Shown here in pieces: positions 142 through 44,285 of a stretch of 50,616 nucleotides of DNA. The first letter of the stretch is position 1. Each line of letters begins with the position of its first letter. Below the pieces are notes generated by a model, which saw only the letters and a list, made by a program, of their open reading frames with translations, did no database searches and was not told the DNA's origin. Made by a program: the position numbers and the translations under genes. The stretch spans positions 1-50,616 of the forward strand of contig JAUWPQ010000001.1 in the NCBI GenBank assembly GCA_030611515.1, given 5' to 3'. Origin of the DNA: Planctomycetota bacterium (GTDB taxonomy: Bacteria > Planctomycetota > Planctomycetia > Pirellulales > Thermoguttaceae).

Positions 142-1279
<1,138 letters not shown>

Positions 1280-1297
1280 ACCCTTCGGAAAGACCTT

Positions 1298-3067: not shown

Positions 3068-3423
3068 CAATCAAGCTCCCTATACAACGGTGGGCAATTC
3101 GTGTTGAACAATCGTGGGCGAGACGAACTGGTCCCACCGCCAACAAGATGAAATCCATAAGAACAAAACCGGCACGCCCCCCTCCGAAGCAGGATGAACG
3201 GCGGGAATCGTGGACCGCAGTCTACCGCAAGCTTCCCGTCAAGTAAATTGGGGGTATCCGAGAATTAACCCTTGTAAGAGGCGATTCCAGTCGCCGATTA
3301 CGGAGTATTGCACCACCGCCATCGGCATCTGGAGACGCCTCCTGCAATCGAACGGTAGTTTTTCAACAAGCTGTTTAGTGAACCGTGAAAACTTAGTCTC
3401 AAGTGAACCCGTCGCCCGGCTTG

Positions 3424-4812: not shown

Positions 4813-4874
4813 TGTAAGCTCCGGGGTTTGTGCGAGCGTGAGGATCGTCTTGCAACGGGAAAGAAGCCCCAACT

Positions 4875-5393
4875 TTAACGACTGGGCGAGCAACGTTCAA
4901 GTCGTGGCAGCATTTTCTCAATCGCCCGTTCCACTTCCCGCGGATCGATGGTGGCGTCGCCGGCGGCGAAGGTCCGCCGCAAATTGCCTTGGCGGTCGTA
5001 GAGTCGCAGGTGTGGAAGGGCGCCGTCCTCGAGACGGAAGGCGGAAAAAGCCTCGGGGCCGACGCCGTAGCGGGCCAGATAGTTCTCCGTCGTCGCGCCG
5101 TGACGGCCGAGCAACCGGCGGACTGCCGATTCGTTGTCGGGATCGTCCAGACTGACGGTGACGACGACCAGCCCCAGAGCGCGGAAGCGGTTTTGCAACT
5201 CGATGGTGTGGGGCAGCATCTCCACGCACGGCCCGCACCACGTGGCCCAGAAGTCGACCAGCACCACCTTTCCCCGGTGTTTTTCCAGCAGTCGGTCCAG
5301 CGCCGGGGCGTCGATCTCCCGAAGCGGCGCCTCGGGAAGTGGTTTCGGTCGAGAATCTCTCCCGCACGCCAAGCAAACGAGGACCGCTGCCAT
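4875..5393 (-). CDS. TlpA/ResA-like thiol-disulfide oxidoreductase (thioredoxin fold)
   Basis: WATWCGPC active-site motif. Hydrophobic N-terminus MAAVLVCLACG from the ATG at 5393. The longer track ORF (to 5531) runs through a REP palindrome and is unlikely to be coding. Confidence 0.7.
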   Translation of the reverse strand: MAAVLVCLACGRDSRPKPLPEAPLREIDAPALDRLLEKHRGKVVLVDFWATWCGPCVEMLPHTIELQNRFRALGLVVVTVSLDDPDNESAVRRLLGRHGATTENYLARYGVGPEAFSAFRLEDGALPHLRLYDRQGNLRRTFAAGDATIDPREVERAIEKMLPRLERCSPSR

Positions 5394-5423
5394 CAACAGC
5401 GGCAACGCGACGCGATGGACAGT

Positions 5424-5547
5424 GTAGCAGGCACACTCCGTGTGCCGTCGGCAAACATTTGTAATTGGATGGCGGCTGTCGCTCATGGAATCGAATACCC
5501 AGTAGCGCCGCTTGTGGAGCAAACGGCACACGGAGTGTGCCTGCTAC
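5424..5547. repeat. REP doublet (family B): inverted pair of GTAG-headed hairpins
   Basis: GTAGCAGGCACACTCCGTGTGCCG at 5424-5447 has its exact reverse complement at 5524-5547. Each arm is itself a hairpin (GGCACAC-TCC-GTGTGCC). Confidence 0.85.
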
Positions 5548-5554
5548 GTTGCAG

Positions 5555-6148
5555 TCATTCGTATTTTATGCTGCAACCGAACTGCTTGATTACCGCCTCT
5601 GACGGTTTCTTGCCGGCCAGCAGCGCGTCCAAGGCGTTGCGGAGGTGGTGTTTTTTGACTTTTCCGGCACTCATGTTGTCGTCGATCGCGCCCATGTAAG
5701 CGATCTTCCGTTTCCCATCGAGCACGAACACGTGTGGGGTCACCTTCGCGCCGTAGTCGTGGCCGATCTTTTGCGAGGAATCGTAGAGATACGGGAAGTT
5801 GAAGCCCTTTTCCTTCGCCCGCTTTTTCATCTCGTCCAGGCGGTCGGCCGGCAGGTTATTCACGTTGACGGCGACCAACTGTACCCCCTTCGGCCCATAG
5901 TCTTTCTGCAAGGCCACCAATCGCTCCTCGTACGCCACGGCCACCGGGCAATGGTTGCAGGTGAACACCACGACCACCAGCCGGGCGTCCGCGTAGTCGG
6001 CCAAGCCGTGCGGCTTGTCGTCGATGCCGACGATGTCCGTGAAGTTGGGGGCGGGCTGTCCGATGGTCAAGTCCGCCGCATTGGCCCCGGCGGCGAGGGT
6101 GGCCGTCAATGCCGCCAGCAAACAAACGCGTCTTGTCGTCAACGTCAT
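5555..6148 (-). CDS. secreted thioredoxin-fold protein (redoxin/AhpC-TSA family)
   Basis: Signal peptide MTLTTRRVCLLAALTATLAAGANA. Motifs FTCNHCPVAVAYE (CxxP) and KVTPHVFVLD are typical of redoxin-family proteins. Confidence 0.75.
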   Translation of the reverse strand: MTLTTRRVCLLAALTATLAAGANAADLTIGQPAPNFTDIVGIDDKPHGLADYADARLVVVVFTCNHCPVAVAYEERLVALQKDYGPKGVQLVAVNVNNLPADRLDEMKKRAKEKGFNFPYLYDSSQKIGHDYGAKVTPHVFVLDGKRKIAYMGAIDDNMSAGKVKKHHLRNALDALLAGKKPSEAVIKQFGCSIKYE

Positions 6149-6426
6149 GATCGTGGGGCTCCTTGAGTCTGAATTTGCGTAATTGCGGCCGCTCGGCGGT
6201 TTTTCGAGCGAGCCGCACTCTAATCATTATTGGATCGCGGCATCGAGTCTGGCAAGCCGACCCGTCGGACAAAACGACCCCCCCCTGTAGCCGTATTTTC
6301 GCCCGTCCAATGTTGTCGGCGGGGTTTCTTGGGTGGAATTCTTACGCCGATTATGGCATACTATCGTTTGTCGAGCCTATTTTCTTATCCAGTATCCATG
6401 ATGGCTTTTCTGTTGGAGGTGCGGGC

Positions 6427-8895: not shown

Positions 8896-8985
8896 CGGTG
8901 GCATATCCGAAACGGGGCCTCGGCCGAGCGGATTTCACACCCGCTGGAACCTCACGCCTTTTCGCGGCACACTGAAAAACGCGGG

Positions 8986-10131
8986 TTAGTTCCCCGTAAG
9001 CCGAATCACCGAAATCGTGTGCGGCTTATCGTGCTTGGTGTTTTTCAGCCCGGGGAAGGGCATGTCGAAGTTCGCGATGATCAGGTCGTCGCCGCGAATG
9101 GCCGGCTCGCAAGGCTGGTCCAAGAGGCCATCGGCGCCGTTGGTGTCGTCGTTTTCCCACAGCGTCGCGATCGAGTTGTCCTTGGTATCGAAGACCATAA
9201 TGGCGTTCCGCGCCGAGTCAGCAATATATATCTTGTCGGTGCGCACGTCGCAGAACATGCCGTCGCAGCATATCAATTGCGGCCGCCCGGCGATTCGCTC
9301 CTGCGATTTGACCGAGCCATCCGGGTTGAACGTGACTTTGAAGAGTTGCCCATCGCCGAAGTGGCCGTAATACAGGTTGCCCTTGCTGTCGAAGGTCAGG
9401 CCGTCGGCGCCGGCAATGTCGTTGCCTCGCTCCGAAAACGGCTTCGTCACCGACGTGACCAGCAAGTGGGGATCGTCTTCTCCCTTGGGCTTGAGCATGA
9501 CCGGGCCCTTCTGCATCTCGGCCAACGAGATGCGGTATACGCCGCTCATGGGCTTGTCGGCCAAGTCGAAGAACGTCTCGGTGACGAACATGTTGTCGCC
9601 GTTGAACATGACGGCGTTGGAAAGCTTGAAGCCGTCCACGACGACATCCGCATCGACTGGCTTGCCGTCCTTGATGTTCACGCGGATCACCCGCGACCAG
9701 CGATGCTTCTTGTCCTTGTCATTGAAATACTGATTGTCGGCATAATACAAGTTCCCATCGGGGCCGAAGTCCATACCCATCGGATGGGCGTGGCCGGTTT
9801 CGGGGTGTTTCGGGCATTTGTCGAAATAGACCTCCCATCTATTGTTCGGGGTGATCTGGATCAACTTGCCGAGATATTTCATGTCATTGAAGTTCGGGCA
9901 AGCGACGATCATATTATTCGTCTTCTTGTCCAATCGTATGCCGTCAGGAGTGTTAAGTTCGTCGGGGAACGATAGCAGAAGCTGGGGACGGAATCGTTGC
10001 TGCCGGGCGGACGTCTGTTTCGCCGTAACGCCGACGTTTGCTTTCAGTTCCTCGCCGGCCAGGACGGCTTCCGCCAACAGGCCGCAGACCAACCATGCAC
10101 CCATCCAGTATTTCGTGTTTCGGAACGTCAT
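8986..10131 (-). CDS. secreted beta-propeller protein, SMP-30/gluconolactonase/LRE-like
   Basis: Signal peptide, then repeated GPDGNLYY / DSKGNLYYGHF / DKIYIADS blades typical of SGL/NHL-type propellers. Confidence 0.5.
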   Translation of the reverse strand: MTFRNTKYWMGAWLVCGLLAEAVLAGEELKANVGVTAKQTSARQQRFRPQLLLSFPDELNTPDGIRLDKKTNNMIVACPNFNDMKYLGKLIQITPNNRWEVYFDKCPKHPETGHAHPMGMDFGPDGNLYYADNQYFNDKDKKHRWSRVIRVNIKDGKPVDADVVVDGFKLSNAVMFNGDNMFVTETFFDLADKPMSGVYRISLAEMQKGPVMLKPKGEDDPHLLVTSVTKPFSERGNDIAGADGLTFDSKGNLYYGHFGDGQLFKVTFNPDGSVKSQERIAGRPQLICCDGMFCDVRTDKIYIADSARNAIMVFDTKDNSIATLWENDDTNGADGLLDQPCEPAIRGDDLIIANFDMPFPGLKNTKHDKPHTISVIRLTGN

Positions 10132-10177
10132 GAGGTATTATCCTTGGATTTGAAACGATGGTGAATTGTGGTAAGTG

Positions 10178-11608
10178 TTAAATCGAGATCGCCACGCCGG
10201 CATCCCGTAGAGCGAATTGCAGTTTGGCAATGTCCACGTCGCGCGGTCCGATATGCTGAGCCACGGCCATTGCCGCGGCGGCGCCGGCCGCTTGGCCGAG
10301 GGTCATCATGGTGCGACTGAGCCGGCAACTTGACGCCGCAATGTGGGAAAAACTGGCCGCGCGGCTGGCAATCATCAGGTTCCGTGTCCCCTTGGGCAAT
10401 AGGCATCCGTAGGGGGTGCCGTAGGGACCGTTTGGCAACTCGTACAGCCGGCCCTTGTGGCCGTGGAGATCGACGGCGTGGTCGCTGATGGCAATGATGT
10501 CCCTCCGCGGTTGCTTCCTCACGCCGGCTCGGCAGTCGTTCTCGTTCAGCACGTACTCGCCGATAATCCGGCGGGTTTCGCGCACCCCGATCCGCGGTGC
10601 AATACCCGAAATCGACCACGTGCCATAACCCTTACCTTTTACGGGCCATGCCCATCTGCTGTCGGGCGATAGATTCTGCAATTGATAAAAATGCGACATA
10701 ACCCGGCGATGAGCCTCGCGCATCAACTCGCTGTACTCCATGCACAAGACTGCGTTGCCGCCGATCATGCCGACGGGGTTCAGCAGCAAATCCCCGTTGG
10801 GCATCTTTACAATATGAACCGGTAGCGGGCAGCTATTCTCCTTCACGCCTTCGGGCAGATACGGCTTCTGTTTCACCCCCGTGTCCGTAATCCGGTAGCA
10901 GAGAGTCAGTCCGTTGAGAGACATTTCAGCTTTCTCCGGCGCCGTCGGTTCGTTATAGAGCGACTTCGGATCCTCGCCCATGTGATACTCGCAACCGGCA
11001 TCGGCGCAAACGTCGCCGTCGGCCGTACAGTCGATGAATACGTCGGCCTCAATCAACATCCGTTTGCCGGAAAACCAGGCTTCGACGGCCTTGACCGCGT
11101 TGTTCTCCATCCGCGCGCGGCAAAACGTCGTATTCAGCAGCGTCCGGCATCGCCCCGTGGCGTCGAGCATTTTTCGGGCGACATAGTCCAACGCTCGCGG
11201 CTCGAACGGCAAACCGTGCCCACCGCGCCGCGGCGCGCCTTCGTCGTAGTTGGAAAATGTGACGGCCAGAGGATCCTCTTTCATGGCCATGTAAAGATCG
11301 CGGGGAATGCCGTTCGCGCCCGAGACCGGCTCCCAGGTGTGAACCCAGGCCATGGTGGAAGTGCCGCCAAGGACGGATTCACGTTCGAGTAGCACGACCT
11401 TGGCGCCCGCACGCGCGGCGGCCAGCGCCGCCCCAATACCCCCGCTTCCGCCGCCGATGACGCAAACCTGGGTTTTTATAGTTTCGTCCGGCGAGGTCTC
11501 GCGCCGGCCCGTGGAAGTCACTTGCCCAACAGCAATCGCCGGGAGTCCACAGACGGCGCCCACTCCGGCAATCAGGGTTTTCGCGGCAGCGCGACGGTTA
11601 CAGATCAA
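10178..11608 (-). CDS. FAD-dependent oxidoreductase (Tat-signal-like N-terminus)
   Basis: Dinucleotide-binding motif VCVIGGGSGGIGAALAAARAGAKVVLLERESVLGG, and NRRAAAKTL near the N-terminus. The start codon at 11608 is TTG. Confidence 0.7.
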   Translation of the reverse strand: MICNRRAAAKTLIAGVGAVCGLPAIAVGQVTSTGRRETSPDETIKTQVCVIGGGSGGIGAALAAARAGAKVVLLERESVLGGTSTMAWVHTWEPVSGANGIPRDLYMAMKEDPLAVTFSNYDEGAPRRGGHGLPFEPRALDYVARKMLDATGRCRTLLNTTFCRARMENNAVKAVEAWFSGKRMLIEADVFIDCTADGDVCADAGCEYHMGEDPKSLYNEPTAPEKAEMSLNGLTLCYRITDTGVKQKPYLPEGVKENSCPLPVHIVKMPNGDLLLNPVGMIGGNAVLCMEYSELMREAHRRVMSHFYQLQNLSPDSRWAWPVKGKGYGTWSISGIAPRIGVRETRRIIGEYVLNENDCRAGVRKQPRRDIIAISDHAVDLHGHKGRLYELPNGPYGTPYGCLLPKGTRNLMIASRAASFSHIAASSCRLSRTMMTLGQAAGAAAAMAVAQHIGPRDVDIAKLQFALRDAGVAISI

Positions 11609-23894: not shown

Positions 23895-23967
23895 TGGAGC
23901 GGAGGAGGGTTGAACTCCCGACCTCTGCATTGCGAACGCAGCGCTCTCCCAACTGAGCTACCGCCCC
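23895..23967 (-). tRNA. tRNA-Ala (anticodon CGC)
   Basis: The reverse complement reads GGGGCGGTAGCTCAGTTGGGAGAGCGCTGCGTTCGCAATGCAGAGGTCGGGAGTTCAACCCTCCTCCGCTCCA. It folds as a cloverleaf with a G3:U70 acceptor pair and anticodon loop TTCGCAA. CCA is not encoded. Confidence 0.85.
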
Positions 23968-24200
23968 AACCTGCGTTCCATATTCTACAACCTAGCAGCC
24001 GGTTTCGCAAGCTGGAAGAAATCTGAGTGGTGTCCAAATATGACTACGATCTTTTCACGGTCATGGACGCTTCCCGCGTTTGCGAATTGGCAAACACCGG
24101 AGCAAACGGGCACTGTCCAACAGTGAATTACTGAGAAATGTCCATCTGAATGTGTGAGGCTTGCCAGGAACAACCGAAAAGTCAACTGGACTTGGAACTT

Positions 24201-25775
24201 CTATGTCTCGTTTTGTGATTGAGCGGAATTGAGTCGGTAATGGGCGTTCGGGTCGCGGTCAAATTTGCTCACATAATCAAATAGGCCCCGCTTCATCAGT
24301 CCCTGCAGGACTGTTCGTGCGCCGTGCCACGTCTTTTCTTCAATTAGTCGCTGCGCCTCGCTGACGTTGATTGACCCATGCTCTGCCGCAAAGTTGATAC
24401 ATCGCCGTTCCTTTTCAGAGAGGGTCTTAAAGATGGCTTCACCAACAAGATGGCTTGCGTCCTTGTCAATCCAGACATCGCGCTGAGCTTGATTGTTGCG
24501 AAGGGTTACGCGAACAAGAGCGTTTCCAATTTCTTTTTGCTCAAATTCCGGCTCCGGTAATTCCATCTTCAGCATTACATCACGCATTCGCCGCGTTCCT
24601 TCGTTTTCGCACTTGACGAAATCCATATAGAACATTGCGTCCATTAGGAAGTAGTTTCTTCTGTGGTGAACCTCATAGATGTTTTCGGGTGTTACAAATG
24701 GAGGGAATGGGCCAGGGCTTTCGATCACGAGTCGGTCATCAAACATTTTGATGAAGATATTCATATTTCTGAGGCTATACGATCGATGAACACATGCATT
24801 CACTATCGCCTCAAACCATGCGGCTTGCGGATATTCTGGGGCCGTAAAGAACTTTCCATCACGTCCCAAGCGTGAGAATGTCCGAATCTGGCTTTCCACA
24901 AGTCGATTAGCCTGGACAATGATTTCCGGCACTCGTCCCTCGATGAACTCATCTTTAACGACATTCCGTTTTTCGCCGGTCAGCTTTTCCGTGCCTTCGT
25001 ATCGCTGAAAGCGAATCATACAACCAGGAATTACAGCCTTCAGACTCTTGGCAAAGAGTAATGCACATGCAATGTTGGGGACGAATTGGCCACTTTGAAA
25101 TGTTCCGAGGTTTCGGTTCGCGAGAATTTGCTCAGGTGTGTGATCTGTTCGCAGCCCCTTTTTCTCCTTAACACTAGAAGCAAAGTCGGCAATTGCTGAT
25201 GAATCGAAGTCACCGGGATAGTTCAAACCGCAGGGCTCCTGCTCGAAAAGAACCTGCCCTTTATCAATCATCAACTCGCGTTTCTCTTCTTCCATTAGGC
25301 GGAACTTAGAATCCCCGCGTCTTCGGAAGGCTTGCCCCTTATTGGTCTCGACGACTTTGTCTTCGCGATACCGTACGCGAACAAGAAGTATAAAATCTCT
25401 TTCCCCATCTTTATCGCGAACAATTTCTACTCGTTTTGTATCGTATAACGCATCGGGGCAAAGTTCACGGCCAACCTTCTCGTGTTGATTTATCTTGTCT
25501 TGGCTGACGGATAAACACCCAACAAGTTGTCCATCGTCGGAAACGCCTATCACAATTAGGCCGCCTTCTGGCGATGTATTTGCCCACATGGAAAAATACT
25601 CCGATAGCGACTCGCGATGGATTCCCGGGGGCTTCCGTTCGACCCTGGAATCCTCGAGGAGCTTTGGAATGAATTCTGCGGACGCAGCGGCGTACAATTC
25701 GTCCGGGTTCAGTACTTCCAATGGGCGGGAGGACGGAGGCTTATTAAAATCGAGCAACAATTGGCAGTCATTCAT
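24201..25775 (-). CDS. AlbA_2 (Schlafen-like) plus HATPase_c_4 plus C-terminal wHTH protein (putative ATP-dependent DNA-binding regulator)
   Basis: 524 aa. The N-terminus (EDSRVERKP...SEYFSMWANTSPEGGLIVIGVSDDGQLVG) fits the AlbA_2 pattern. The middle (AWFEAIVNACVHRSYS...IKMFDDRLVIESPGPFP) fits the RecG-C-terminal-like HATPase_c_4. The region is AT-richer than its flanks (line 24661-24720 has 30/60 G+C). Confidence 0.7.
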   Translation of the reverse strand: MNDCQLLLDFNKPPSSRPLEVLNPDELYAAASAEFIPKLLEDSRVERKPPGIHRESLSEYFSMWANTSPEGGLIVIGVSDDGQLVGCLSVSQDKINQHEKVGRELCPDALYDTKRVEIVRDKDGERDFILLVRVRYREDKVVETNKGQAFRRRGDSKFRLMEEEKRELMIDKGQVLFEQEPCGLNYPGDFDSSAIADFASSVKEKKGLRTDHTPEQILANRNLGTFQSGQFVPNIACALLFAKSLKAVIPGCMIRFQRYEGTEKLTGEKRNVVKDEFIEGRVPEIIVQANRLVESQIRTFSRLGRDGKFFTAPEYPQAAWFEAIVNACVHRSYSLRNMNIFIKMFDDRLVIESPGPFPPFVTPENIYEVHHRRNYFLMDAMFYMDFVKCENEGTRRMRDVMLKMELPEPEFEQKEIGNALVRVTLRNNQAQRDVWIDKDASHLVGEAIFKTLSEKERRCINFAAEHGSINVSEAQRLIEEKTWHGARTVLQGLMKRGLFDYVSKFDRDPNAHYRLNSAQSQNET

Positions 25776-34433: not shown

Positions 34434-36026
34434 ATGAAATCAACATATATTCATCTCGCCGCCGGCCAACTGGCCGCTGAAGCGGCCAGCCCTCGTCTCG
34501 CCCCTCGCCCCTCGCCCCTCGCCCCTCTTTCCTGCCTGCTACTGATTCTGGCCGGGTGTCCCCGCCCCGAATCGGAACCGCAGCCCGGCCACGACCGTCT
34601 GCCGCTTGAGGGAGTGACGCTTCGGCTGGCCGTGGTTGACGATCCGGCGCTGGCGGCCGCCGTGGTTCAAGCGCGCGGAGAATGGAACGCACAAACCGGC
34701 GCGGAGCTTGAAGTTACGGAAATCTCGGAAAAAGAATTGGAACGGGCCGAAACGCTGCCGGCCGACGCCGTGCTCTGTCCCTCCCACACGCTGGGCATCC
34801 TCGCCGAACGGGACTTGATCGAACCAGTGCCGAAAAACATCATCCGCGGCGATCAGTGGAACGGCATCTTCGACTTGCCAAAACTCCGCGAAGCAGCTTG
34901 GGGGGGGCGGATCGTGGCCGTTCCGTTCGGCTCGCCGGTTTTCTGCTGCTACTACCGCGCCGACCTGCTGGAAAAACTCGGCCGCCGCCCGCCACGGACG
35001 TGGAGCGAGTATCGGGAACTGGCGGAGCTATTGGCGAAAAACTCCCCTCTCCCTTTGGGAAAAGGGCCGGAAGCAAACTCCCCTCTCCCTTTGGGAGAGG
35101 GGCCGGGGGTGAGGGCACCTTGGTCCGCCACAATCGAGCCGCTCGCCCCCGGCTGGGCCGGCTTGACGCTGCTGGCCCGGGCAGCGCCCTACGCAAAACA
35201 CCGCGACAATTTTTCCACGCTGTTCAACATCGAAACGATGGCGCCGTTGATTGCCGGAGAGCCTATAGTCCACGCGCTGGAAGAGCTTGTGGCCACGGCC
35301 GAACTGGGGCCTGATGATCCGTTTCAATTCGATCCGGCCAAGGTCCGTGCGGCGTTCCGGCGGGGCGAGTGCGGCATGGCGATCTCCTGGCCCACGGCCG
35401 CCGTTGAAGAGAGGGGAGAGGGGAGAGGGGGGAGGGGAGAGTTTGGAGGGCTGGCCGCTTCAGCGGCCAGTGATTCGGCCCGCGTCGGATTCGTCGAACT
35501 CCCCGGCTCGCGGCGGGTCTTCAACCTCTCCAAAAACGAGTGGGACAAACGAGCGGACGACGACGATCGCCATGTGCCGCTGCTGGCCGTGGCCGGCCAG
35601 ATGGGCGTGGTCGCCAAGGGATCGACCAATCGCAAGGCCGCTTTCCAGTTGCTCTTGTGGCTCTCCGACGACCGGATGAGTCCGCAGATCAGCGCGCTGA
35701 GTCCGGCGACGACCATGTTCCGCCAGTCGAACCTGGATGTTCCCGGCCAGTGGGTCGAAGAAACGGTCCTCCACGCCGCCGCGTCGCAATACGGCGAGGC
35801 GACCCTGGCCGCCTTCAGTCACGAGCAATGGCTCGGGGCCTTGCGTATCCCCGGCCGGGCGGAATATCTCGCCGCCTTGGACGAAGCGGTCGCGGCGGCC
35901 GTCCGCGGCGAGAAATCGGCTCAAGAAGCCCTGCAACAAGCCGAGACCAAATGGCGAGAAATCACCAACCGCCTCGGCCTCGACCGCCAAAAAGCCGCCT
36001 ATCGGCACAGCGTAGGACTGGAGTAA
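34434..36026 (+). CDS. ABC transporter extracellular solute-binding lipoprotein (family 1-like)
   Basis: ATG at 34434. Lipobox-like LLILAGC, and an SBP-like body (VPFGSPVFCCYYRADLLEKLG, WSEYRELAELL, ISWPTAA). It carries four in-frame repeat insertions. The stop codon TAA (36024-36026) is the first 3 nt of a REP copy. Confidence 0.65.
   Translation: MKSTYIHLAAGQLAAEAASPRLAPRPSPLAPLSCLLLILAGCPRPESEPQPGHDRLPLEGVTLRLAVVDDPALAAAVVQARGEWNAQTGAELEVTEISEKELERAETLPADAVLCPSHTLGILAERDLIEPVPKNIIRGDQWNGIFDLPKLREAAWGGRIVAVPFGSPVFCCYYRADLLEKLGRRPPRTWSEYRELAELLAKNSPLPLGKGPEANSPLPLGEGPGVRAPWSATIEPLAPGWAGLTLLARAAPYAKHRDNFSTLFNIETMAPLIAGEPIVHALEELVATAELGPDDPFQFDPAKVRAAFRRGECGMAISWPTAAVEERGEGRGGRGEFGGLAASAASDSARVGFVELPGSRRVFNLSKNEWDKRADDDDRHVPLLAVAGQMGVVAKGSTNRKAAFQLLLWLSDDRMSPQISALSPATTMFRQSNLDVPGQWVEETVLHAAASQYGEATLAAFSHEQWLGALRIPGRAEYLAALDEAVAAAVRGEKSAQEALQQAETKWREITNRLGLDRQKAAYRHSVGLE
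34469..34527. repeat. composite element: CTGGCCGCTGAAGCGGCCAGCCCTC hairpin plus (GCCCCTC)n tract, copy 1
   Basis: Same architecture as 38876..38944 (same orientation) and 35408..35470 (inverted). It lies in the signal-peptide n-region of the SBP. Confidence 0.8.
35041..35110. repeat. tandem pair of terminator-like hairpin units inside the SBP CDS
   Basis: ACTCCCCTCTCCCTTTGGGAAAAGGGCCGGAAG and ACTCCCCTCTCCCTTTGGGAGAGGGGCCGGGGG. The second unit forms CCCCTCTCCC-TTT-GGGAGAGGGG, the complement-loop version of the 13418 terminator stem. It is translated as NSPLPLGKGPEANSPLPLGEGPG. Confidence 0.8.
35408..35470. repeat. composite element, copy 2 (inverted): (GGGGAGA)n tract plus GAGGGCTGGCCGCTTCAGCGGCCAG
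   Basis: Reverse-complement architecture of 34469..34527. In frame in the SBP (EERGEGRGGRGEFGGLAASAAS). Confidence 0.8.
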
Positions 36027-36079
36027 ACGGGACAGGTCTAATTACCAACAGATTGCGAGCCTTTTGTCAGGATGCTCAC

Positions 36080-36143
36080 ATGCCGAGAACCGCACGTATT
36101 GCCCCTGGCGGAATGGTGTTCCACGTTCTCAACCGACGACGAA
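36080..36143 (+). pseudogene. truncated duplicate of the RAYT gene 5' end
   Basis: Part of a roughly 120-bp tandem duplication (36024-36143 versus 36144-36263). It encodes MPRTARIAPGGMVFHVLNR and then diverges. Confidence 0.7.
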
Positions 36144-36199
36144 TAAACGGGACAGGTCTAATTACCGACGGATTGCGAGTCTCTTGTTAGGATGCTCCC

Positions 36200-36889
36200 A
36201 TGCCAAGAACCGCACGCATTGCCCCTGGCGGGATGGTGTTCCACGTTCTCAACCGCGGCGTGGGGCGGATGAATCTGTTCGCTAAGGATGGCGACTATGA
36301 GGCGTTCGAGCGGAGCATCGAGAAGACGCTGGAAAGCTGCCCGATGCGTATCTGCGCCTACTGCTTGATGCCCAACCATTGGCACTTCGTATTTTGGCCG
36401 CAGCAGGACGGCGATCTGGGAGCTTTCATGCAGAAGCTTACCGTCACACACGTGCGTAATTGGCAAGAACATCGGCGGCGGGTTGGTTACGGACACGTGT
36501 ACCAAGGCCGCTATAAGTCGTTTCCGGTGGAGGCCGACGAGTATTTCTACCAGGTGATGCGTTACGTGGAGCGGAACGCCTTGCGGTCGAATCTCGTCGC
36601 CCGGGCCGAGGCATGGCGATGGGGCAGTCTGTGGCGTCGCGTGTGTGGCAAGCCTTCCGACCGCAAGTGGCTCAGCAAGTGGCCGCTGCCCATTCCGCGT
36701 GGCTGGAAAGACCTTGTCAACCAGCCACAAACGGAAGCCGAGTTGGAGGCGATTCGTCGGAGCGTGGCCCGAGGCCAGCCCTACGGCAACAACGCCTGGA
36801 GAAAACAAACCGCAAAGGATTTGGGGCTTGAATCGACGATGCGGCCCCGCGGACGGCCCTGGGACCGGGCGACAACACACGATAATTAG
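36200..36889 (+). CDS. REP-associated tyrosine transposase (RAYT; IS200/IS605-type Y1 transposase family)
   Basis: 229 aa. MVFHVLNRGV..., CAYCLMPNHWHFVFWP (HUH-like HWH), and GHVYQGRYKSFPVE (catalytic Tyr region). Flanked by inverted 21-nt repeats at 36144 and 36884. Confidence 0.8.
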   Translation: MPRTARIAPGGMVFHVLNRGVGRMNLFAKDGDYEAFERSIEKTLESCPMRICAYCLMPNHWHFVFWPQQDGDLGAFMQKLTVTHVRNWQEHRRRVGYGHVYQGRYKSFPVEADEYFYQVMRYVERNALRSNLVARAEAWRWGSLWRRVCGKPSDRKWLSKWPLPIPRGWKDLVNQPQTEAELEAIRRSVARGQPYGNNAWRKQTAKDLGLESTMRPRGRPWDRATTHDN

Positions 36890-36914
36890 ACCTGTCCCGT
36901 TTATTTCGCCTCGT

Positions 36915-37841
36915 TTATTTCGCCTTGGGGTACCGGATGCCAATTGAAACCGCCGCTTGGCCCGGCACCATCCCCATCTCAATCGTAGCCCCGTCCGCCA
37001 TTAACCCAACAAAACCTTCTTCGATCGTCTTGTCGGCACCAGTGATCACACGGTCGGGCGGTAATTCTGCAAGGCCACACTCGTCTATCGTTCGCAGCAG
37101 TTCGGCAGTGGAAGTCAAAAACCACTCCCTGCCAAGGGAAGCCGGACTTCTTCTACCGAGTGATCGCAGTCGCTTATGGACCTGTGTTTCTAAGTGCCTT
37201 CCATCCCAGGTACTAAACACAAGAAGCACTTTTGGTTTTTCCGGGAAACCGGCTCTTTCAACAATCTGCGACCGGATTCGACCGAAGGCACCATCGCAAG
37301 AGTTCTTCGAGAAGCCGACCTTGACCGGATAGTGTTCGTCACGCCTGACTGTCGCCAACTCGATCAAGGATGGGAATGTAAAAGCATACAAATCCTGATC
37401 GCCGACGCCTTTGAAAATCGTCTCCGATATTGTGAGGTATTCGCCGTAGTACTTTGCAATCCAGCTTTCACGGCACGTTGCAGCGACCAGTGGATCTGCA
37501 TCAAATCGCGTGTTCCGATTTTGTACGATCAGTTCGTCTGCGACGGCTCTCACAGAATCCTCGGTTACTCGTTGAAAGGCGCATCGCTTCAGACGAAGTT
37601 TCTGTCCCGCATCGAATATTACATCTGCAAATGTATAGCCGTCGGTCGTTTCGGAAATTGTCCAACCCAGTGCTCCAATGTGGAGTTCAGCGCCGTAGGA
37701 TCGGAGATCGTGAACCAGCACGATTCGTTCGCGGTTCTCAACGTCGAGGCACAAGCGGCCACCAATGTCGTACGTATGCAAATAGCCATTGACGATCTCG
37801 CGCCGTGAAATTTTCGGTAGTGGCTTCGATTTTGTAGCCAA
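36915..37841 (-). CDS. hypothetical protein: unassigned N-terminal domain plus C-terminal T5orf172/MUG113-like (GIY-YIG superfamily) domain
   Basis: 308 aa with a TTG start. The C-terminal half (LYAFTFPSL...YPVKVGFSKNS...GRIRSQ...LLVFSTWDGRHLETQVHKRLRS...GREWFLTSTAELLRTI) follows the T5orf172 pattern. The N-terminal 150 or so residues are unrecognised. The domain call was made by eye only. Confidence 0.55.
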   Translation of the reverse strand: MATKSKPLPKISRREIVNGYLHTYDIGGRLCLDVENRERIVLVHDLRSYGAELHIGALGWTISETTDGYTFADVIFDAGQKLRLKRCAFQRVTEDSVRAVADELIVQNRNTRFDADPLVAATCRESWIAKYYGEYLTISETIFKGVGDQDLYAFTFPSLIELATVRRDEHYPVKVGFSKNSCDGAFGRIRSQIVERAGFPEKPKVLLVFSTWDGRHLETQVHKRLRSLGRRSPASLGREWFLTSTAELLRTIDECGLAELPPDRVITGADKTIEEGFVGLMADGATIEMGMVPGQAAVSIGIRYPKAK

Positions 37842-37960
37842 GATTCTTCCAATCTGTTGGGGCCGAATGACAGGGATGATCAGGTGGCCGGGAGCGAGCC
37901 AGCCATCCCGAAAACTTCAGCTACCGGCCACTCTGGTCTATCCCTTGTTCGACGAGCGTC

Positions 37961-38482
37961 CTATGAACGCCCAAGTAGAGTACGCGCCTCGTTTCCTATG
38001 GCATCAGCAAGCACCTTATGCAGACGTTGGAGTTCATTGTGTTGAGCCTGGAAACCCGCTTGATCTAATACGCCAAGGCGTGTTGCCAATGACTGTGGAG
38101 ATAATAGCAACTCTGGTGGTTGGTGATCGGCGTCGACAAAGTGACGGAGTGCCCATGAATGATACGATCGTAGTTTCGCCGTGTATTCCGATACCGCGGT
38201 TTGTAGACCAGGGAAATACAGAATGGTCAAGGATTCTAAGGGAAAGAAAGCGATGGCCGGATGCGTATTGGCGCTGTCTTGAAATGCAGTTGTCCCTTCA
38301 AAATGCTCTCGCCATTCCGTTGTCTGCCGCAGCGCCAGAGTCAGATCTTCGAGCTTCTGAAGCAGCGTGGTGGTTCGTCTGTGTTTGCGTTCAAGCCACG
38401 ATGAAAGCATGGAGACGGATGCGCCAATGGCCGTGCCAACGATGGCGGCGGATGCGGCGATGATCGCGGGCCAGTAGTCCAT
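37961..38482 (-). CDS. hypothetical single-pass membrane protein
   Basis: 173 aa with an ATG start. N-terminal helix YWPAIIAASAAIVGTAIGASVSMLSSWL followed by a basic stretch (ERKHRR). The rest is helical-looking with no known motif. It lies 119 nt upstream of, and co-directional with, 36915..37841. Confidence 0.5.
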   Translation of the reverse strand: MDYWPAIIAASAAIVGTAIGASVSMLSSWLERKHRRTTTLLQKLEDLTLALRQTTEWREHFEGTTAFQDSANTHPAIAFFPLESLTILYFPGLQTAVSEYTAKLRSYHSWALRHFVDADHQPPELLLSPQSLATRLGVLDQAGFQAQHNELQRLHKVLADAIGNEARTLLGRS

Positions 38483-38592
38483 CGTTGTGTCCTTCCTGCT
38501 CGTCGAACTTACCCTGTATCACGAATTCCAGCAACCTGAGTATAACAAGGCTCAAGGGCGAGTAAACGGGCGAGTAAACGGTAAACGAACGG

Positions 38593-38714
38593 TAAACGGG
38601 ACAGGTCTAATTATCGCGTACTATTCCAAAAACCGTGCGAACGGCCTGTAACAAATGGCTTTCCTGATGCGGGCCGTCGCAAAGGAACGTAATAATTAGA
38701 CCTGTCCCGTTTAC
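38593..38714. repeat. REP doublet of the RAYT-associated 21-mer
   Basis: TAAACGGGACAGGTCTAATTA (38593-38613) and TAATTAGACCTGTCCCGTTTA (38694-38714), separated by 80 nt. Preceded by degenerate GTAAACG tandem copies (38562-38592). Confidence 0.85.
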
Positions 38715-38721
38715 TCGTCCG

Positions 38722-38863
38722 CGAAGCGGTCGCGGCGGCCGTCCGCGGCGAGAAAGCGGCTCAAGAAGCCCTGCAACAAGCCGAGACCAAATGGCGAGAA
38801 ATCACCAACCGCCTCGGCCTCGACCGCCAAAAAGCCGCATACCGACACAGCGTGGGGCTATAA
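38722..38863 (+). repeat. duplicated 3' end of the SBP gene (orphan copy)
   Basis: Aligns to 35882-36026. It reads EAVAAAVRGEKAAQEALQQAETKWREITNRLGLDRQKAAYRHSVGL-stop in frame. The first 110 or so nt have 1 mismatch. The last 9 codons differ at 6 third positions, all synonymous. Confidence 0.85.
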
Positions 38864-38875
38864 AATCGTCGATTG

Positions 38876-38944
38876 CTGGCCGCTAAAGCGGCCAGCCCTC
38901 CGATCCCTTCTCCCTCTTCCCTCCTCTCTCTTCTCTCTTCACCC
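38876..38944. repeat. composite element, copy 3: CTGGCCGCTAAAGCGGCCAGCCCTC hairpin plus polypyrimidine tract
   Basis: Same orientation as copy 1 (34469). It abuts the stop codon of the cyclase gene (38944-38946). Confidence 0.8.
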
Positions 38945-40912: not shown

Positions 40913-41380
40913 TCATGGTTGTTCAGGTTCGGACAACACCCACGGAACGCGCGTTATGAATTCAAGCTGGATAAGGTGCTTGCCGGCGAAAGGTACCCGA
41001 ACCAACGCAAGGCTATTGGTAAAGCCAAATTCACACCCACCGGTAAGCTTCTCAAACTCATATACTCCGCCGCTTTCGTGAGTCTGCTTTATGACATCGC
41101 GGCCGGAAAGGATTCTGCCGACAACATGATACCATCCGCCCGTAAGATGCAGAGCGGAGTCCTCTCGACCATAGTGGCACAGCTCGACCGGCTTTCTAGG
41201 GTCGATGCCTAGCAGATTAGCAATTGATGTAAACCCCTTGGGAAAAGCCTTGTCTAACGCTGCCATGAAGTTTCGGCAGTCAGCACAATCGCATCCCGGT
41301 CCTTCCGGTTCGGCTTCATAGCACTTCCGGGTGCCATCCGGCTGATGTTCAATAGTCCAACGACCAATGGTGGAAATCAC
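40913..41380 (-). CDS. hypothetical protein (Cys-motif CDCADC)
   Basis: 155 aa with a GTG start. AT-richer region (line 41041-41100 has 29/60 G+C). No recognisable domain. Confidence 0.4.
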   Translation of the reverse strand: MISTIGRWTIEHQPDGTRKCYEAEPEGPGCDCADCRNFMAALDKAFPKGFTSIANLLGIDPRKPVELCHYGREDSALHLTGGWYHVVGRILSGRDVIKQTHESGGVYEFEKLTGGCEFGFTNSLALVRVPFAGKHLIQLEFITRVPWVLSEPEQP

Positions 41381-41426
41381 GATTTTCCCAATCCCCAGTA
41401 TCTAATCCCTAGTCCCTCACTCTTTT

Positions 41427-41456
41427 CCGCTCAACCGTTTCGCCATCCCCTACAGC
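41427..41456. repeat. direct repeat, left copy (decayed copy of the kinase gene's 3' end)
   Basis: CCGCTCAACCGTTTCGCCATCCCCTACAGC versus 42205-42234 CCGCTCAACCGCTTCGCCATCCCCCACAGC (28/30 identical). In the kinase frame the left copy has TGG changed to TAG. Confidence 0.8.
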
Positions 41457-41465
41457 TTGGCTCAT

Positions 41466-41810
41466 TCACCAAGTGCCGAAAATGCGTCGCAAGGCTGCGG
41501 AGATCGCGGCTCGATCCTCACTTTGAACACAGCCCAGGCAACGTTGGACCAGAGATTTTTCCAGTGTGGCCAGTTTGTGCAGTCGAACGGTTGAGGACGC
41601 AAGCAAACCAGCGTCTTTCCAATCATGGAGTAAAACGTCATGGTTGTCTTGCCCGCGCTGAGTCGTCACCCTGGCAACCAAGACGTCGGCATCGCCCACA
41701 TCCAAGACTACCATCGCCGGACGGATCTTGGTTTTGACGCCCGCCGTGTAAGGGAACGCGATGAGAACCAGATCACCCGGCTGATAGTTGATCATAGATT
41801 GCGTCGCCAT
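41466..41810 (-). CDS. mazF: PemK/MazF-family toxin endoribonuclease
   Basis: MINYQPGDLVLIAFPYTAGVKTKIRPAMVVL...ARVTTQ...SSTVRLHKLATLEKSLV is the PemK pattern. Alternative ATG at 41795. Confidence 0.8.
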   Translation of the reverse strand: MATQSMINYQPGDLVLIAFPYTAGVKTKIRPAMVVLDVGDADVLVARVTTQRGQDNHDVLLHDWKDAGLLASSTVRLHKLATLEKSLVQRCLGCVQSEDRAAISAALRRIFGTW

Positions 41811-41991
41811 CAGAGTAGCCGTTAAGAAACTGCTCCGCGGTCAGCCCAGCCCAAGACTGGTTCTCGGCCGCGTCCGGCACAAGCAACACGACTTGCAACG
41901 CCTTTTCCCCTTGGATTTGCCGGGCGACGGCAGGCGGAACCGTAAGCGTATGATCCGGGTTCAATTGGGTCTGGAACTCCAGGACTTTCAT
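41773..41991 (-). CDS. antitoxin (AbrB/MazE/SpoVT-like) cognate to the PemK toxin
   Basis: 72-aa ORF immediately upstream of the toxin and overlapping it. TVPPAVARQIQGEKALQVVLL resembles a swapped-hairpin barrel. Confidence 0.6.
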   Translation of the reverse strand: MKVLEFQTQLNPDHTLTVPPAVARQIQGEKALQVVLLVPDAAENQSWAGLTAEQFLNGYSDGDAIYDQLSAG

Positions 41992-42102
41992 GATGCCCTC
42001 CTTCTCGGATACGCGCCATCCACCTTTACTTTAATTTTAGGCTATTCGCTCCAGCTCTGCAAGCGCCGTTCATACTCTGTAGGTCGGGCATGGGACATCA
42101 AG

Positions 42103-42177
42103 TTTAGCCGCCGCGTCCACGCGGCGTGAATGGGGGCCATGTCGGCCATAATCCCCGGCGTGGACGCCGGGGCTAAA
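42103..42177. repeat. divergent member of the TTTAGCC-hairpin doublet class (family A-like)
   Basis: TTTAGCCGCCGCGTCCACGCGGCG...CCCCGGCGTGGACGCCGGGGCTAAA. Same architecture as family A but with different stem sequences. Confidence 0.7.
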
Positions 42178-42194
42178 CAACTTTTTTTCTCCCG

Positions 42195-44285
42195 CTACTG
42201 GTTCCCGCTCAACCGCTTCGCCATCCCCCACAGCCCGGCCATGACCAGAGCGATCGTTCCCAACGCGATCAGGCCGTAGTAGAGAAACCCGCGTTTCAAC
42301 TTGCTCAGCGTGGCGTTGATGGCCGTTTCGTAGTCCTCCTGGACGATCACGATCCAACCGGTGTCGGTGTCGCGGACGCGGACCGGCTCCATCCTGGCGA
42401 GCCACCGTCGGTTGAATTCGCCCCCCTCGGCGTCGACCGCCAGCGGGTCGCTGTAATGTTCCTCTCGCGCCGGCGTGTTGGGCAGGTCGTCTGACGCGAC
42501 GCGATAGTACTGAAACCGGTCGGGCAGCTTGGTCTCCTTCTCCATCAACTTGTCGAGCAGCGGATGTTGCAGCACAACGCCCTTATGGTCGCCCTCGCGA
42601 TTGTCCACCAGCACGGCGAATTGGTCGTCGCCGCCGGGAAAATCGACGAATCGCCCCACCTCGGCAGTCATCGCCACCACGCCCAGAAACTTTTTCTCCG
42701 GCGAGAGGTCGAACACCGGCGCGCTGATGGCAACTATCCAGCGAAAAGTGGACCGCGAGCGGAACACGTCGGAGAGCGTGGTCTGTTGGATGTGTTCGCC
42801 CGGCGCCGGACGCCAGGAGTCGGGCAGATCGTTCGGTCCGCCGTGAAAAAAGCTCCGCCAGGCGAAGTCTTTGCCGATCGTCCGCCCCTCCGGCACACGG
42901 ACGGTGGACACCCCGCCGGCGTCGCAAAAGAACCAACTGGCCACCTTTTCCTCTTCCGACGGCCGCGTCGTCGAGGTGAGCATCGCCGTAAGCTCCCGCT
43001 GCAATGTTTGCCGCTCGGGGTTTTCGAGAAATTGCCGCCGCACCGAGTCCTGTTCCGCCGGATCGATATTCGGATCGGCAAGCCGGACGAGCAAATCGTG
43101 CAGTTCGGGGTTTGCGAGGGCCTCGGCCAGCCGTTCACGAAACTGCTTCGAGGCGGCCACCTGTTCGACGATCCGGTAGCGGCTCTCCAACTCGTTGGAA
43201 GCGGTCCGGGCGGCGAATTGGGCCGCGAACCGGTTGGTCTCCAACGCTCGGGCCGTCAACGCGTCGTTCGACTGCCGCAAGGCCGTGCTGAATCCCTGAT
43301 AGGCGAACCACGCCACCACCGCCAGCAGCAACGCCGGACCGATCGCGCCGAGAACCATCATCGGACGACGGGCCAACCGCGCGGCACGCTCGTCCAGCGC
43401 GTCGAGGACCGCCTGAACGTTGGGAAACCGCTTTTCAGGATCAGCCGCCAAACAGCGATCCACGATCGCCGCGAGCATCTTGTCGACGCCCCGCCGCCGC
43501 CGATGTCCCGACACCAGCGGAGACTGTTCGATCGTCCGGCGATAGTGGGCGAGCCGTTCGGTCAACTCGGGCGTCCGCTCGAAGATGTCCGTGGTCTTAC
43601 CCGTCCTATGCGGCGGGCCGCCGGTCAACATGCAATACAACAGCGCCCCCAGCGCGTATACGTCCCAGCGCGCGTCGGGCATCGCCTCCAGGTCGGCCTG
43701 CTCCGGGGCCATGTAGAACATCGTCCCCAACGCCGGCGCCTGCTCGGTCGAGAGCCGCGACTGACCGAAATCGGCCAAGCGCGGTTTGCCGTCCTGGTCC
43801 AGCAGGATATTGGCCGGCTTCAGGTCGCAGTGCAAAACACCCTTGCCGTGGGCATGGATCAGGCCGATCGACACGTCGCGGAACAACGACACCGCCTCAT
43901 CGACCGGCAACTGCCCCTGGGCAATCCGGTCGGCCAGCGACCCTTTCTCCAGATACTCCATGATGTAGTAGGGCGGGTCGGAATCCCAGCCGACGCCCAA
44001 CAGTTGCACCACGTAGCGGTCGGCGAACAGAAAGGCGAGTTTCTCGACCTCGCGGCTCAGCAGCGACCAGTCGAGGCCCCCGCGATGGGCATAGAACTTG
44101 ATGGCCACCCGCCGGCCGGTGTTCCGTTCGCGGGCGACCCATACCTCGCCGTAAGCACCGACGCCCAGGAACCGCTCCGGCTCGTAGCCGGGCACTTCGG
44201 TGGGCAGAAAGCCGCGTTTCAGGCTCTTCTCCGCCGCCCGCCGCCGCTCCCCCCCATCTTGGATTTCCGTTCGGTCGGTGCTCAT
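42195..44285 (-). CDS. transmembrane Ser/Thr protein kinase with extracytoplasmic sensor (Cache-like) domain
   Basis: Hanks kinase motifs (GVGAYGEVWVA, VAIKF, HCDLKPANILL, DFG, APE). TM helix, a domain of about 330 aa, then a second TM helix near the C-terminus. Confidence 0.85.
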   Translation of the reverse strand: MSTDRTEIQDGGERRRAAEKSLKRGFLPTEVPGYEPERFLGVGAYGEVWVARERNTGRRVAIKFYAHRGGLDWSLLSREVEKLAFLFADRYVVQLLGVGWDSDPPYYIMEYLEKGSLADRIAQGQLPVDEAVSLFRDVSIGLIHAHGKGVLHCDLKPANILLDQDGKPRLADFGQSRLSTEQAPALGTMFYMAPEQADLEAMPDARWDVYALGALLYCMLTGGPPHRTGKTTDIFERTPELTERLAHYRRTIEQSPLVSGHRRRRGVDKMLAAIVDRCLAADPEKRFPNVQAVLDALDERAARLARRPMMVLGAIGPALLLAVVAWFAYQGFSTALRQSNDALTARALETNRFAAQFAARTASNELESRYRIVEQVAASKQFRERLAEALANPELHDLLVRLADPNIDPAEQDSVRRQFLENPERQTLQRELTAMLTSTTRPSEEEKVASWFFCDAGGVSTVRVPEGRTIGKDFAWRSFFHGGPNDLPDSWRPAPGEHIQQTTLSDVFRSRSTFRWIVAISAPVFDLSPEKKFLGVVAMTAEVGRFVDFPGGDDQFAVLVDNREGDHKGVVLQHPLLDKLMEKETKLPDRFQYYRVASDDLPNTPAREEHYSDPLAVDAEGGEFNRRWLARMEPVRVRDTDTGWIVIVQEDYETAINATLSKLKRGFLYYGLIALGTIALVMAGLWGMAKRLSGNQ
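42205..42234. repeat. direct repeat, right copy (within the kinase CDS 3' end)
   Basis: See 41427..41456. Confidence 0.8.

Follow-up and report, generated by a model that had tools for sequence, protein, structure and literature searches.

Integron cassettes, as found in sedentary chromosomal integrons, in clusters of attC sites lacking integrases (CALINs) and as single attC sites lacking integrases (SALIN), consist of a single short open reading frame (ORF) followed by an imperfect attC hairpin with AAC...GTT cores. They meet at G|TT boundaries, begin with a 5' TTnnnn complementary to their own R'' core, and form rows of co-directional, unrelated ORFs of low GC content. Integrons are known in Planctomycetes (PMC4889954, PMC2426708), and anti-phage activity has been shown for many small cassette genes (bioRxiv 10.1101/2024.07.02.601686). 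With regard to nucleases, SNIPE is a single polypeptide that joins a transmembrane (TM) segment, DUF4041 and a GIY-YIG nuclease (PMC13190303), and T5orf172 is a GIY-YIG subfamily with demonstrated glutamate-dependent nuclease activity (PMC10448857). Here we analysed a stretch of 50,616 nt from a Planctomycetota bacterium (GenBank assembly GCA_030611515.1, contig JAUWPQ010000001.1, positions 1 to 50,616; hereafter the window), in which two adjacent genes, ORF-B (a small membrane protein) and ORF-A (a T5orf172-like protein), lie within repeats. With a probability of roughly 0.7, we regard them as two separate integron-type cassettes, the remnant of an array, and neither as an obligate two-gene system nor as cargo of the surrounding repetitive extragenic palindromic (REP) sequences. 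Apart from the GTT of the core, which is mutated here, the features of integron cassettes listed above recur at this locus, and the same gene families sit in true multi-attC arrays elsewhere (L022, L030, L040, L041 and L053-56 of our comparison loci).

The two minus-strand genes are co-directional, are separated by a 119-nt spacer (37842-37960) and lie between REP copies, with exact 20-mers at both edges (36884-36903, plus strand; 38593-38612, minus strand), as an earlier note made from the sequence alone had described. That note also called the region AT-richer than its flanks and horizontally acquired. Both points hold: the GC content is 0.51-0.53 across 37001-38500 vs 0.61-0.66 on either side, and near-identical genes occur in unrelated contexts. 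The outer neighbours are ordinary planctomycete genes (solute-binding protein, FHA-adenylate cyclase, kinase). Beyond these observations, our analysis adds an attC-like site in the spacer, the loss of the ORF-A tail, a gene like those of REP-associated tyrosine transposases (RAYT), and a 138-nt duplication. The features that define the putative cassettes are the following.

36915-37841, minus: ORF-A, 308 aa, TTG start, second putative cassette gene
37842-37867, minus: 5' end of the ORF-A cassette, TTCGGCCCCAACAGATTGGAAGAATC, a leader also present in L005/L006 and L016
37862-37953, minus: attC-like site of the ORF-B cassette, 42 bits with model R2, with a predicted fold
37868-37862, minus: R' core ATTCGGC, in which A replaces the canonical G
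37953-37947, minus: R'' core GTCGAAC, with AAC present
37961-38482, minus: ORF-B, 173 aa, ATG start, first putative cassette gene
38502-38508, minus: GTTCGAC, an R'-type core at which the ORF-B cassette begins, separated from the ATG by 19 nt (38483-38501)

Cassette 1 would thus consist of ORF-B and its attC in the spacer, and cassette 2 would begin at the TT of that site's R' core and hold ORF-A, whose own attC would have been cut away at a REP/RAYT junction. Once the R' core had mutated, an integrase would no longer separate the two cassettes and the pair would be inherited as one block. Such a fusion by R' decay, with no functional link between the proteins, would explain why the genes occur together only in the closest clade of ORF-B. 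The RAYT gene and the REPs presumably arrived later, beside or partly inside the old hairpin-forming attC sites.

To detect attC sites, a first finder gave 0-1 matches in shuffled sequence at strict settings and was noisy at relaxed ones (24 vs 53); it was replaced by covariance models. The first model, R1, was built from 17 canonical attC sites (GCCTAAC...GTTAGGC) taken from non-planctomycete loci only; 81% of the cells in its alignment pair, and its covariation lies above all 500 shuffles. In L022, R1 found 11 sites, all on the strand of the ORF-A homolog, which lies between two of them (1429-1519 and 2469-2559). In L005/L006 it found a site (GCCGAAC...GTTCGGC) ending 21 nt before the ORF-A start (E-value 1e-6), and in L021 a site just before a gene for a 214-aa protein, ending exactly where the homology between L021 and L004 begins. 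These planctomycete sites served to build a second model, R2, from whose training the window, L001 and L013 were excluded. R2 matched the window spacer (37953-37862, minus strand) with 42 bits (E-value ~1e-8) as its sole match in 50.6 kb, and the L013 spacer with 42.8 bits, while matches outside arrays reached at most 17.5 bits in 208 kb. Planctomycete attC sites can thus be modelled and found. Around the ORF-A homolog of L022, R2 recovered 15 sites. This region (L022 1-8459, Pirellulaceae contig CAVPPY010000004.1, a metagenome-assembled genome) has its 15 same-strand attC-like sites between small co-directional ORFs, including the ORF-A homolog P0047, with cores of the AGAAC...GTTCT type, and is a clear Planctomycetota cassette array.

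The boundaries drawn by these sites agree with those drawn by homology. The 5' GTTCGAC of ORF-B is the exact reverse complement (7/7) of its own R'' GTCGAAC, as expected of a cassette 5' end. The L'' and L' arms of the spacer site form an imperfect hairpin with bulges, and its R' core is mutated, reading ATTCGGC in the window and L001 and GCTTGGC in L013, so that GTT is changed in each of them; the comparison cores are GCCGAAC/GTTCGGC in L005 and of the AAC/GTT form at the sites of L022. On the ORF-A side, the leader TTCGGCC(A/C)C(C/T)AA(C/T)AGATTGGA is common to L005 and L016 and begins at the R' core. At loci that hold only ORF-A, DNA homology starts at this core (37850-37871), and L004 and L021 diverge exactly at the R' of the L021 attC. 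At the other end, ORF-A homologs carry GCCGAAC followed by AAAGCGATGAACCCGAG in the codons of their C-terminal tail (KAEQSDEPE), matching the R''-L'' half of the planctomycete attC consensus. The 5' ATTCGGC of ORF-A (GTTCGGC in L005) complements this R''-like GCCGAAC, and in L022 GTTCTGC complements GCAGAAC. In the window, the REP junction falls at this tail attC half, with AAGGCGAAATAAAC where the homologs have AAGGCCGAACAAAG. The acidic C-terminal tail of the homologs (6-16 aa) is missing from ORF-A because the junction cuts exactly at the R''-like tail codons. Upstream of ORF-B, TTCGTGATACAGGGTAAGTTCGAC resembles the 3' half of an attC that once stood there; a REP doublet appears to have taken the place of the 5' half.

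Distant relatives of ORF-B also lie in a cassette context. Their stop codons lie within GC(C/A)TAAC, and the next 60-130 nt form imperfect hairpins ending in GTTAGGC or GTTATGC; by their sequence, they are integron attC sites of the textbook kind, in arrays whose small ORFs are unrelated and all read in one direction. R1 placed attC sites immediately before and/or after the ORF-B-family gene in at least 15 loci, with sites on both sides in L030, L040, L041 and L053-56, and each such gene stands as a single cassette. In L030, for example, sites at 4931-4990 and 5487-5554 bracket the ORF-B-family gene, and the next gene, RelA_SpoT, has its own attC.

Several observations weigh against two relict cassettes. 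No integron integrase or tyrosine recombinase was found among the 10 candidate ORFs scanned in the window, nor among the ORFs near the pair. A single attC-like site can be detected in the window, with ATT instead of GTT in its R' core; planctomycete cores are themselves of the AGAAC/GTTCT type and differ from the textbook RYYYAAC/GTTRRRY. The downstream attC of ORF-A is weak or degenerate in the ~80%-identical clade (15.6 bits in L005, 17.5 bits in L019), where it is clear only in its 5' half, which lies within the tail codons. Sensitivity also depends on settings: with the cmsearch filters off, the scores of true sites fell, and R1 missed the window site. Upstream of ORF-B, ~45 nt on the far side of the R' core are common to the window and L013, so the transfer between them was not a clean integrase excision. 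Lastly, every retrievable close ORF-B homolog retains ORF-A, which fits linkage but also fits function. Our locus differs from typical integron cassettes in its single surviving attC-like site with ATT in R', in that no integrase was seen, in that ORF-A's attC is cut off by a REP and in that the block sits in a RAYT/REP-associated insertion, not in an array. A CALIN is defined by at least two attC sites within 4 kb, and lone attC sites can be degraded cassettes (PMC4889954). With a single R2 match and flanking sites reduced to core remnants, the window falls outside the two-site definition, and the locus is best described as a lone-attC (SALIN-like) remnant.

The two families are largely independent of each other. 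ORF-B has six close homologs (68-99% identity), and wherever the DNA is readable (window, L001-L003, L013-L015), ORF-A follows at 106-119 nt. L001-L003 are syntenic with the window, and L013-L015 have a different upstream context; the DNA shared between the window and L013 runs from 38552 to window position 37207 (the L013 contig end, inside ORF-A), with none further upstream of 38552. Outside this clade the genes part. ORF-A copies that are 79-83% identical at the protein level sit in unrelated places, with nucleotide homology confined to ORF-A (from 36925 to 37850-37871), and ORF-A homologs as a whole occupy about a dozen unrelated contexts, in which the co-directional upstream genes are as follows.

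L004, L007-10 and L021: gene for a 214-aa acidic protein
L005: gene for an 88-aa protein
L012 and a JGI contig: DUF5677 gene
L023: RNase_T-BRCT gene
L024: RuvB gene
L016: gene for a 669-aa protein
L011 and L018: none

In ~30 loci of the wider ORF-B family, a T5orf172 gene is never downstream, and the downstream gene differs each time. Co-occurrence is thus limited to the window, L001-3 and L013-15, against separate occurrence in at least 12 ORF-A contexts and ~30 ORF-B-family contexts. The earlier note had proposed a dedicated two-gene module and a neighbourhood survey of its homologs. The survey finds the pair together in the closest clade of ORF-B (at least 68% identity) and apart everywhere else, with at least six different genes or none upstream of ORF-A, and the conserved module is not supported. 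Cassette structure, with attC sites and G|TT boundaries, accounts for both the boundaries and the changing partners. The analysis yields an attC-like site, cassette boundaries, two independent families and purifying selection on both genes (dN/dS 0.22-0.25 for ORF-B; 0.17-0.40 for ORF-A against its homologs).

A functional link between the two proteins needs to be weighed against this. ORF-B has, as the earlier note had it, one N-terminal TM segment, seen both in the hydropathy profile (residues ~5-26; Kyte-Doolittle 19-residue mean 1.85), where it is followed by a basic ERKHRR, and in the AlphaFold model (predicted local distance difference test, pLDDT, 95), in which a long N-terminal helix, comprising the TM segment and an extension, packs into a helical bundle. 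By the positive-inside rule, this bundle is probably cytoplasmic. One could therefore imagine a two-component, membrane-tethered nuclease, a split analogue of SNIPE, in which ORF-B would serve as an inner-membrane anchor or gate for ORF-A, incoming phage DNA would be cut or the infected cell killed, and attC decay would have been selected because it keeps the two genes together. SNIPE is a working defence of this design, with an N-terminal single-pass inner-membrane anchor and a cytoplasmic GIY-YIG-superfamily nuclease that is toxic when untethered, and its nuclease region is conserved while the rest varies (PMC13190303). This arrangement would also fit the ORF-B topology, the constant succession of the two genes, 106-119 nt apart, in at least two unrelated contexts, the mutation of the spacer R' core in both lineages, and the higher nucleotide identity of the pair (95.5%, window vs L001) than of the flanking cyclase gene (89-91%). 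ORF-A, moreover, also travels with the 214-aa partner in two contexts. Nevertheless, ORF-A homologs of ~80% identity lack ORF-B and stand behind unrelated genes or none, 0 of the ~30 wider ORF-B-family loci have a T5orf172 neighbour, and the 119-nt spacer is a recombination site and not a typical operon junction. ORF-A also lacks a DUF4041 domain (no match at E-values up to 1) and a PADLOC match. In contrast to SNIPE, anchor and nuclease are here two proteins on separable cassettes, associated in one small clade, and there is no sequence-level relationship between SNIPE and ORF-A or ORF-B (no PADLOC or Pfam link beyond the superfamily). We consider a two-component nuclease doubtful.

A related possibility is that the T5orf172 protein is a constant effector with interchangeable upstream partners (ORF-B, the 214-aa acidic protein, DUF5677), swapped by integron recombination and locked by attC decay, which would make ORF-B/ORF-A split SNIPE-like but unrelated to SNIPE. 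The 214-aa protein, which has no family match (e.g., L004 5209-5853), forms with ORF-A a 1.78-kb unit that recurs in two unrelated contexts at 87% nucleotide identity. In L021 this unit begins exactly at an attC R' core, and it is apparently a second fused cassette pair. An exchangeable-partner system seems to us unlikely.

Returning to the two-cassette reading, ORF-A has 63 full-length homologs, nearly all in metagenome-assembled genomes of Planctomycetota, and its TTG start agrees with the N-termini of 33 of them. The earlier note had assigned its C-terminal half to the T5orf172/MUG113 pattern; the first name stands, with a Pfam T5orf172 match (PF10544, residues 168-254) of 26 bits vs a cut-off of 20, and the second does not, as the MUG113 match is under its cut-off. 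PF10544 and/or PF13455 are present in most homologs. The AlphaFold and Foldseek check that the note had suggested also supports T5orf172. In the model (pLDDT 90, predicted template modelling score 0.81), three parts are seen: an N-terminal part (~1-135) with an SH3/KOW-like beta-barrel, for which matches in the Protein Data Bank (PDB) are generic only; a central domain (~145-255) that superposes on viral T5orf172 domains over ~107 columns (root-mean-square deviation 2.7-3.9 Å, probability 1.0); and a small, conserved alpha/beta C-terminal domain (~260-305). Against the PDB, Foldseek gave no match with an E-value below 0.1 for the ORF-A model, only generic SH3/KOW barrels, and a profile search with ORF-A against PDB sequences returned noise only. 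Eight residues (Y152, K174, G176, R188, E195, E218, E239 and W240) are invariant across 34 ORF-A homologs and are ordered as the GIY, YIG, Arg and Glu motifs, the catalytic roles being assigned by motif order and not by structural superposition. Because these Tyr, Lys-Gly, Arg and Glu positions are invariant and the subfamily has a nuclease precedent, ORF-A is probably an active GIY-YIG-type DNA nuclease, in which the beta-barrel N-domain and the small C-domain probably set the target or partner.

An active nuclease of this subfamily could also be a free-standing, homing-endonuclease-like selfish gene that cuts alleles lacking ORF-A, with ORF-B as a bystander. T5orf172 genes are abundant among phage homing endonuclease genes and mark recombination boundaries (PMC10448857). 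Like the phage T5orf172 homing endonucleases and their domesticated relatives (homing endonuclease genes of ICP1, and CapR of PLE; PMC10448857, PMC8096241), ORF-A belongs to this subfamily, is modular with a separate targeting region and lies at exchange boundaries. Homologous DNA in different contexts does not extend beyond the ORF, the residues of catalytic type do not vary, and one homolog lies in a prophage-like region (L011). On the other hand, ORF-A is chromosomal and cassette-borne in Planctomycetota, and no relative was found among 2.9 million IMG/VR viral contigs. Its T5orf172 domain is central, not terminal, and is partnered by an SH3-like barrel and a small alpha/beta domain instead of CapR or DUF723 zinc fingers; the zinc-finger DNA-binding repeats typical of the phage enzymes (PMC10448857) are missing. 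The insertion sites share no flanking homology and give no sign of cognate-site homing, and the boundaries coincide with attC R' cores, which are better explained by integron recombination. Strong purifying selection, without frequent pseudogenes among the 63 homologs, is likewise unlike most homing endonuclease genes. All things considered, homing strikes us as highly improbable. In the vicinity of ORF-A homologs we also observed a TIR protein, a NACHT-like protein and the prophage-like region of L011.

For ORF-B, Pfam, NCBIfam, PADLOC and PHROGs returned nothing, and Foldseek gave no PDB match with an E-value below 0.1, only generic four-helix bundles. The wider family, obtained by exhaustive profile search, comprises 116 clusters at 50% identity, of 150-177 aa and with an N-terminal TM segment, in Thermodesulfobacteriota, Nitrospirota, Gammaproteobacteria, Geomonas and Omnitrophica; the metagenome scan for this family used its 163-165-aa subfamily. 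Our results thus place a Pfam-less family of membrane-anchored helical bundles (>100 clusters, several phyla) on integron cassettes, and they identify a three-domain T5orf172 protein as a cassette gene in Planctomycetota.

Some contexts of the ORF-B family are of interest in their own right, since one member lies in an array rich in defence genes and another stands alone in a prophage or satellite. The attC array of L030/L031 (~700-10492) contains a HaeII restriction-modification system, Vsr, an ORF-B-family cassette and a RelA_SpoT (small alarmone synthetase-like) cassette, with Hachiman (HamA and DEAD helicase) downstream of the array. The collection has P0223, the ORF-B-family protein of this array, in 39 blocks; of the contigs with this protein, 24 were read. 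In Methylohalobius crimeensis (L028 5001-5492, L057 3956-4447), the ORF-B-family gene is the lone opposite-strand gene in a prophage or satellite, in a moron-like position between the terminase (GpA) and Bro-N/primase genes; this arrangement recurs on an IMG/VR contig. At the edge of another cassette array with an ORF-B-family gene (L040 1-79), there is a group II intron fragment (Rfam RF02005, 51 bits).

The repeats around the pair have a history of their own. The REP 20-mer AATTAGACCTGTCCCGTTTA has five exact copies in 50 kb, all at this locus, with 0 expected in shuffles. The relevant features are listed below.

35882-36019, plus: 138-nt direct repeat, first copy, which now forms the 3' end of the solute-binding-protein gene
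36021-36135 and 36141-36255: 115-nt tandem duplication, 91% identical, containing a REP copy and the 5' end of the RAYT-like gene
36024-36043, minus: REP copy (exact 20-mer match, as for the other four)
36144-36163, minus: REP copy, upstream of the RAYT-like gene
36200-36889, plus: RAYT-like Y1 (IS200-like) transposase gene, flanked by the inverted REPs at 36144-36163 (minus) and 36884-36903 (plus)
36884-36903, plus: REP copy that abuts ORF-A and cuts off its 3' tail, and that serves as downstream REP for the RAYT-like gene
38591-38715: REP doublet of REPIN type, inverted REPs forming a 125-nt hairpin upstream of ORF-B
38593-38612, minus: REP copy in the doublet
38694-38713, plus: REP copy in the doublet
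38722-38859, plus: 138-nt direct repeat, second copy (96% identical), the ancestral 3' end of the solute-binding-protein gene, now displaced, with its own stop codon and hairpin

The order in the 2.7-kb block (36020-38721) is REP, REP, RAYT, REP, ORF-A, ORF-B and REP doublet, and the outermost REPs (36021-36044 and 38693-38716) form a perfect 24-nt inverted pair. This block is inserted at the 3' end of the solute-binding-protein gene, with the distal 138-nt copy at its far edge; the proximal copy takes its stop codon from the REP (GAG|TAAACGGG). The RAYT-like gene directly adjoins the ORF-A stop and matches Pfam Y1_Tnp with 46 bits (cut-off 23) and NCBIfam REP_Tyr_transpos with 60 bits (under the cut-off of 80). 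Short tandem repeats abut the REPs: GGCGAAATAAAC occurs twice beside the ORF-A stop (~36904-36927), and GGGCGAGTAAAC and GGTAAAC each occur twice upstream of ORF-B (38556-38592). Repeated REP/RAYT activity at a TAAAC target, possibly within former attC cores, may have left them behind. The REPIN doublet (38591-38715, with GTAAAC...GTTTAC ends) was itself considered as an attC and rejected, as neither R1 nor R2 matches there.

The earlier note had seen the REPs as a mobile scaffold carrying the two genes, and on this reading the pair would be cargo of a composite element, a segment bounded by inverted REP hairpins and moved by the Y1 transposase. The genes do lie between inverted REPs, the block 36021-38716 ends in the perfect 24-nt pair and is flanked by the 138-nt duplication, and the tandem repeats ending in TAAAC suggest repeated activity. 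However, the same ORF-B/ORF-A block in L013-L015 has no REP at all; of 58 loci, only the syntenic relatives L001-L003 have the REP 20-mer. No second copy of the REP-B-A-REP unit was found, and the 138-nt flanking duplication is not a transposition footprint. RAYTs are known to spread short REP or REPIN units, not kilobase cargo. The locus resembles REP/RAYT systems (REPINs) in its Y1 transposase gene flanked by inverted 20-22-nt repeats and in the nearby 125-nt doublet hairpin, and it differs in that all five REPs in 50 kb cluster at one locus, that the NCBIfam score is under the cut-off, and that REPs flank two genes without explaining their mobility. REP/RAYT carriage of the pair is in our view very unlikely. 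What remains of the earlier proposal of a novel, horizontally acquired defence or addiction pair on a REP scaffold is the acquisition and the domain assignments; the two-gene module and the REP carriage are not supported. RAYT/REP elements seem instead to have been inserted into old attC sites.

As to function, the absence of a named system, also put forward in the earlier note, is borne out by PADLOC-DB 2.0, NCBIfam and PHROGs, which gave nothing meaningful for ORF-A and ORF-B or for 34 ORF-A and 45 ORF-B relatives; PADLOC-DB 2.0 gave scattered weak matches only for these relatives. Judging from context (the HaeII restriction-modification/Vsr array next to Hachiman, the prophage or satellite gene, the TIR/NACHT-like vicinity) and from cassette precedent, ORF-A and ORF-B most likely each act alone in conflict with phages or other mobile DNA. 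This would be consistent with the defence cassettes of the Vibrio superintegron (e.g., Brigantia, TM-only; bioRxiv 10.1101/2024.07.02.601686), which likewise encode small proteins outside known families, some with only a TM segment or a nuclease domain, but to which ORF-A and ORF-B have no demonstrated homology. Because compact anti-phage genes have been proven to come from integron cassettes, it would be reasonable to include both families in functional screens. A low-GC pair of membrane-protein and nuclease genes between repeats can mimic a new defence module and is here probably the product of ordinary cassette structure, which calls for caution in scans that rely on gene adjacency.

A scan for promoters and terminators gave signals not above chance, and an Rfam search at gathering thresholds (window and eight loci) returned only a tRNA and a group II intron fragment, with no attC family. 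The tRNA gene (23895-23967, minus strand, 61 bits) adjoins the lowest-GC block of the window (24001-25775, GC 0.46-0.50), which holds a 524-aa ORF with Schlafen AlbA_2 and HATPase_c_4 domains (24201-25775, minus strand) and may be a separate acquired island. Compared with its closest relative, L001, the window shows two further small variable inserts. The first lies between the kinase and cyclase genes (window 40913-42200 vs L001 2131-2592) and includes a low-GC 155-aa ORF (40913-41380). The second lies between the cyclase gene and the REP doublet (window 38716-38935 vs L001 4486-4825), where L001 carries a 107-aa membrane ORF in place of the solute-binding-protein fragment of the window.

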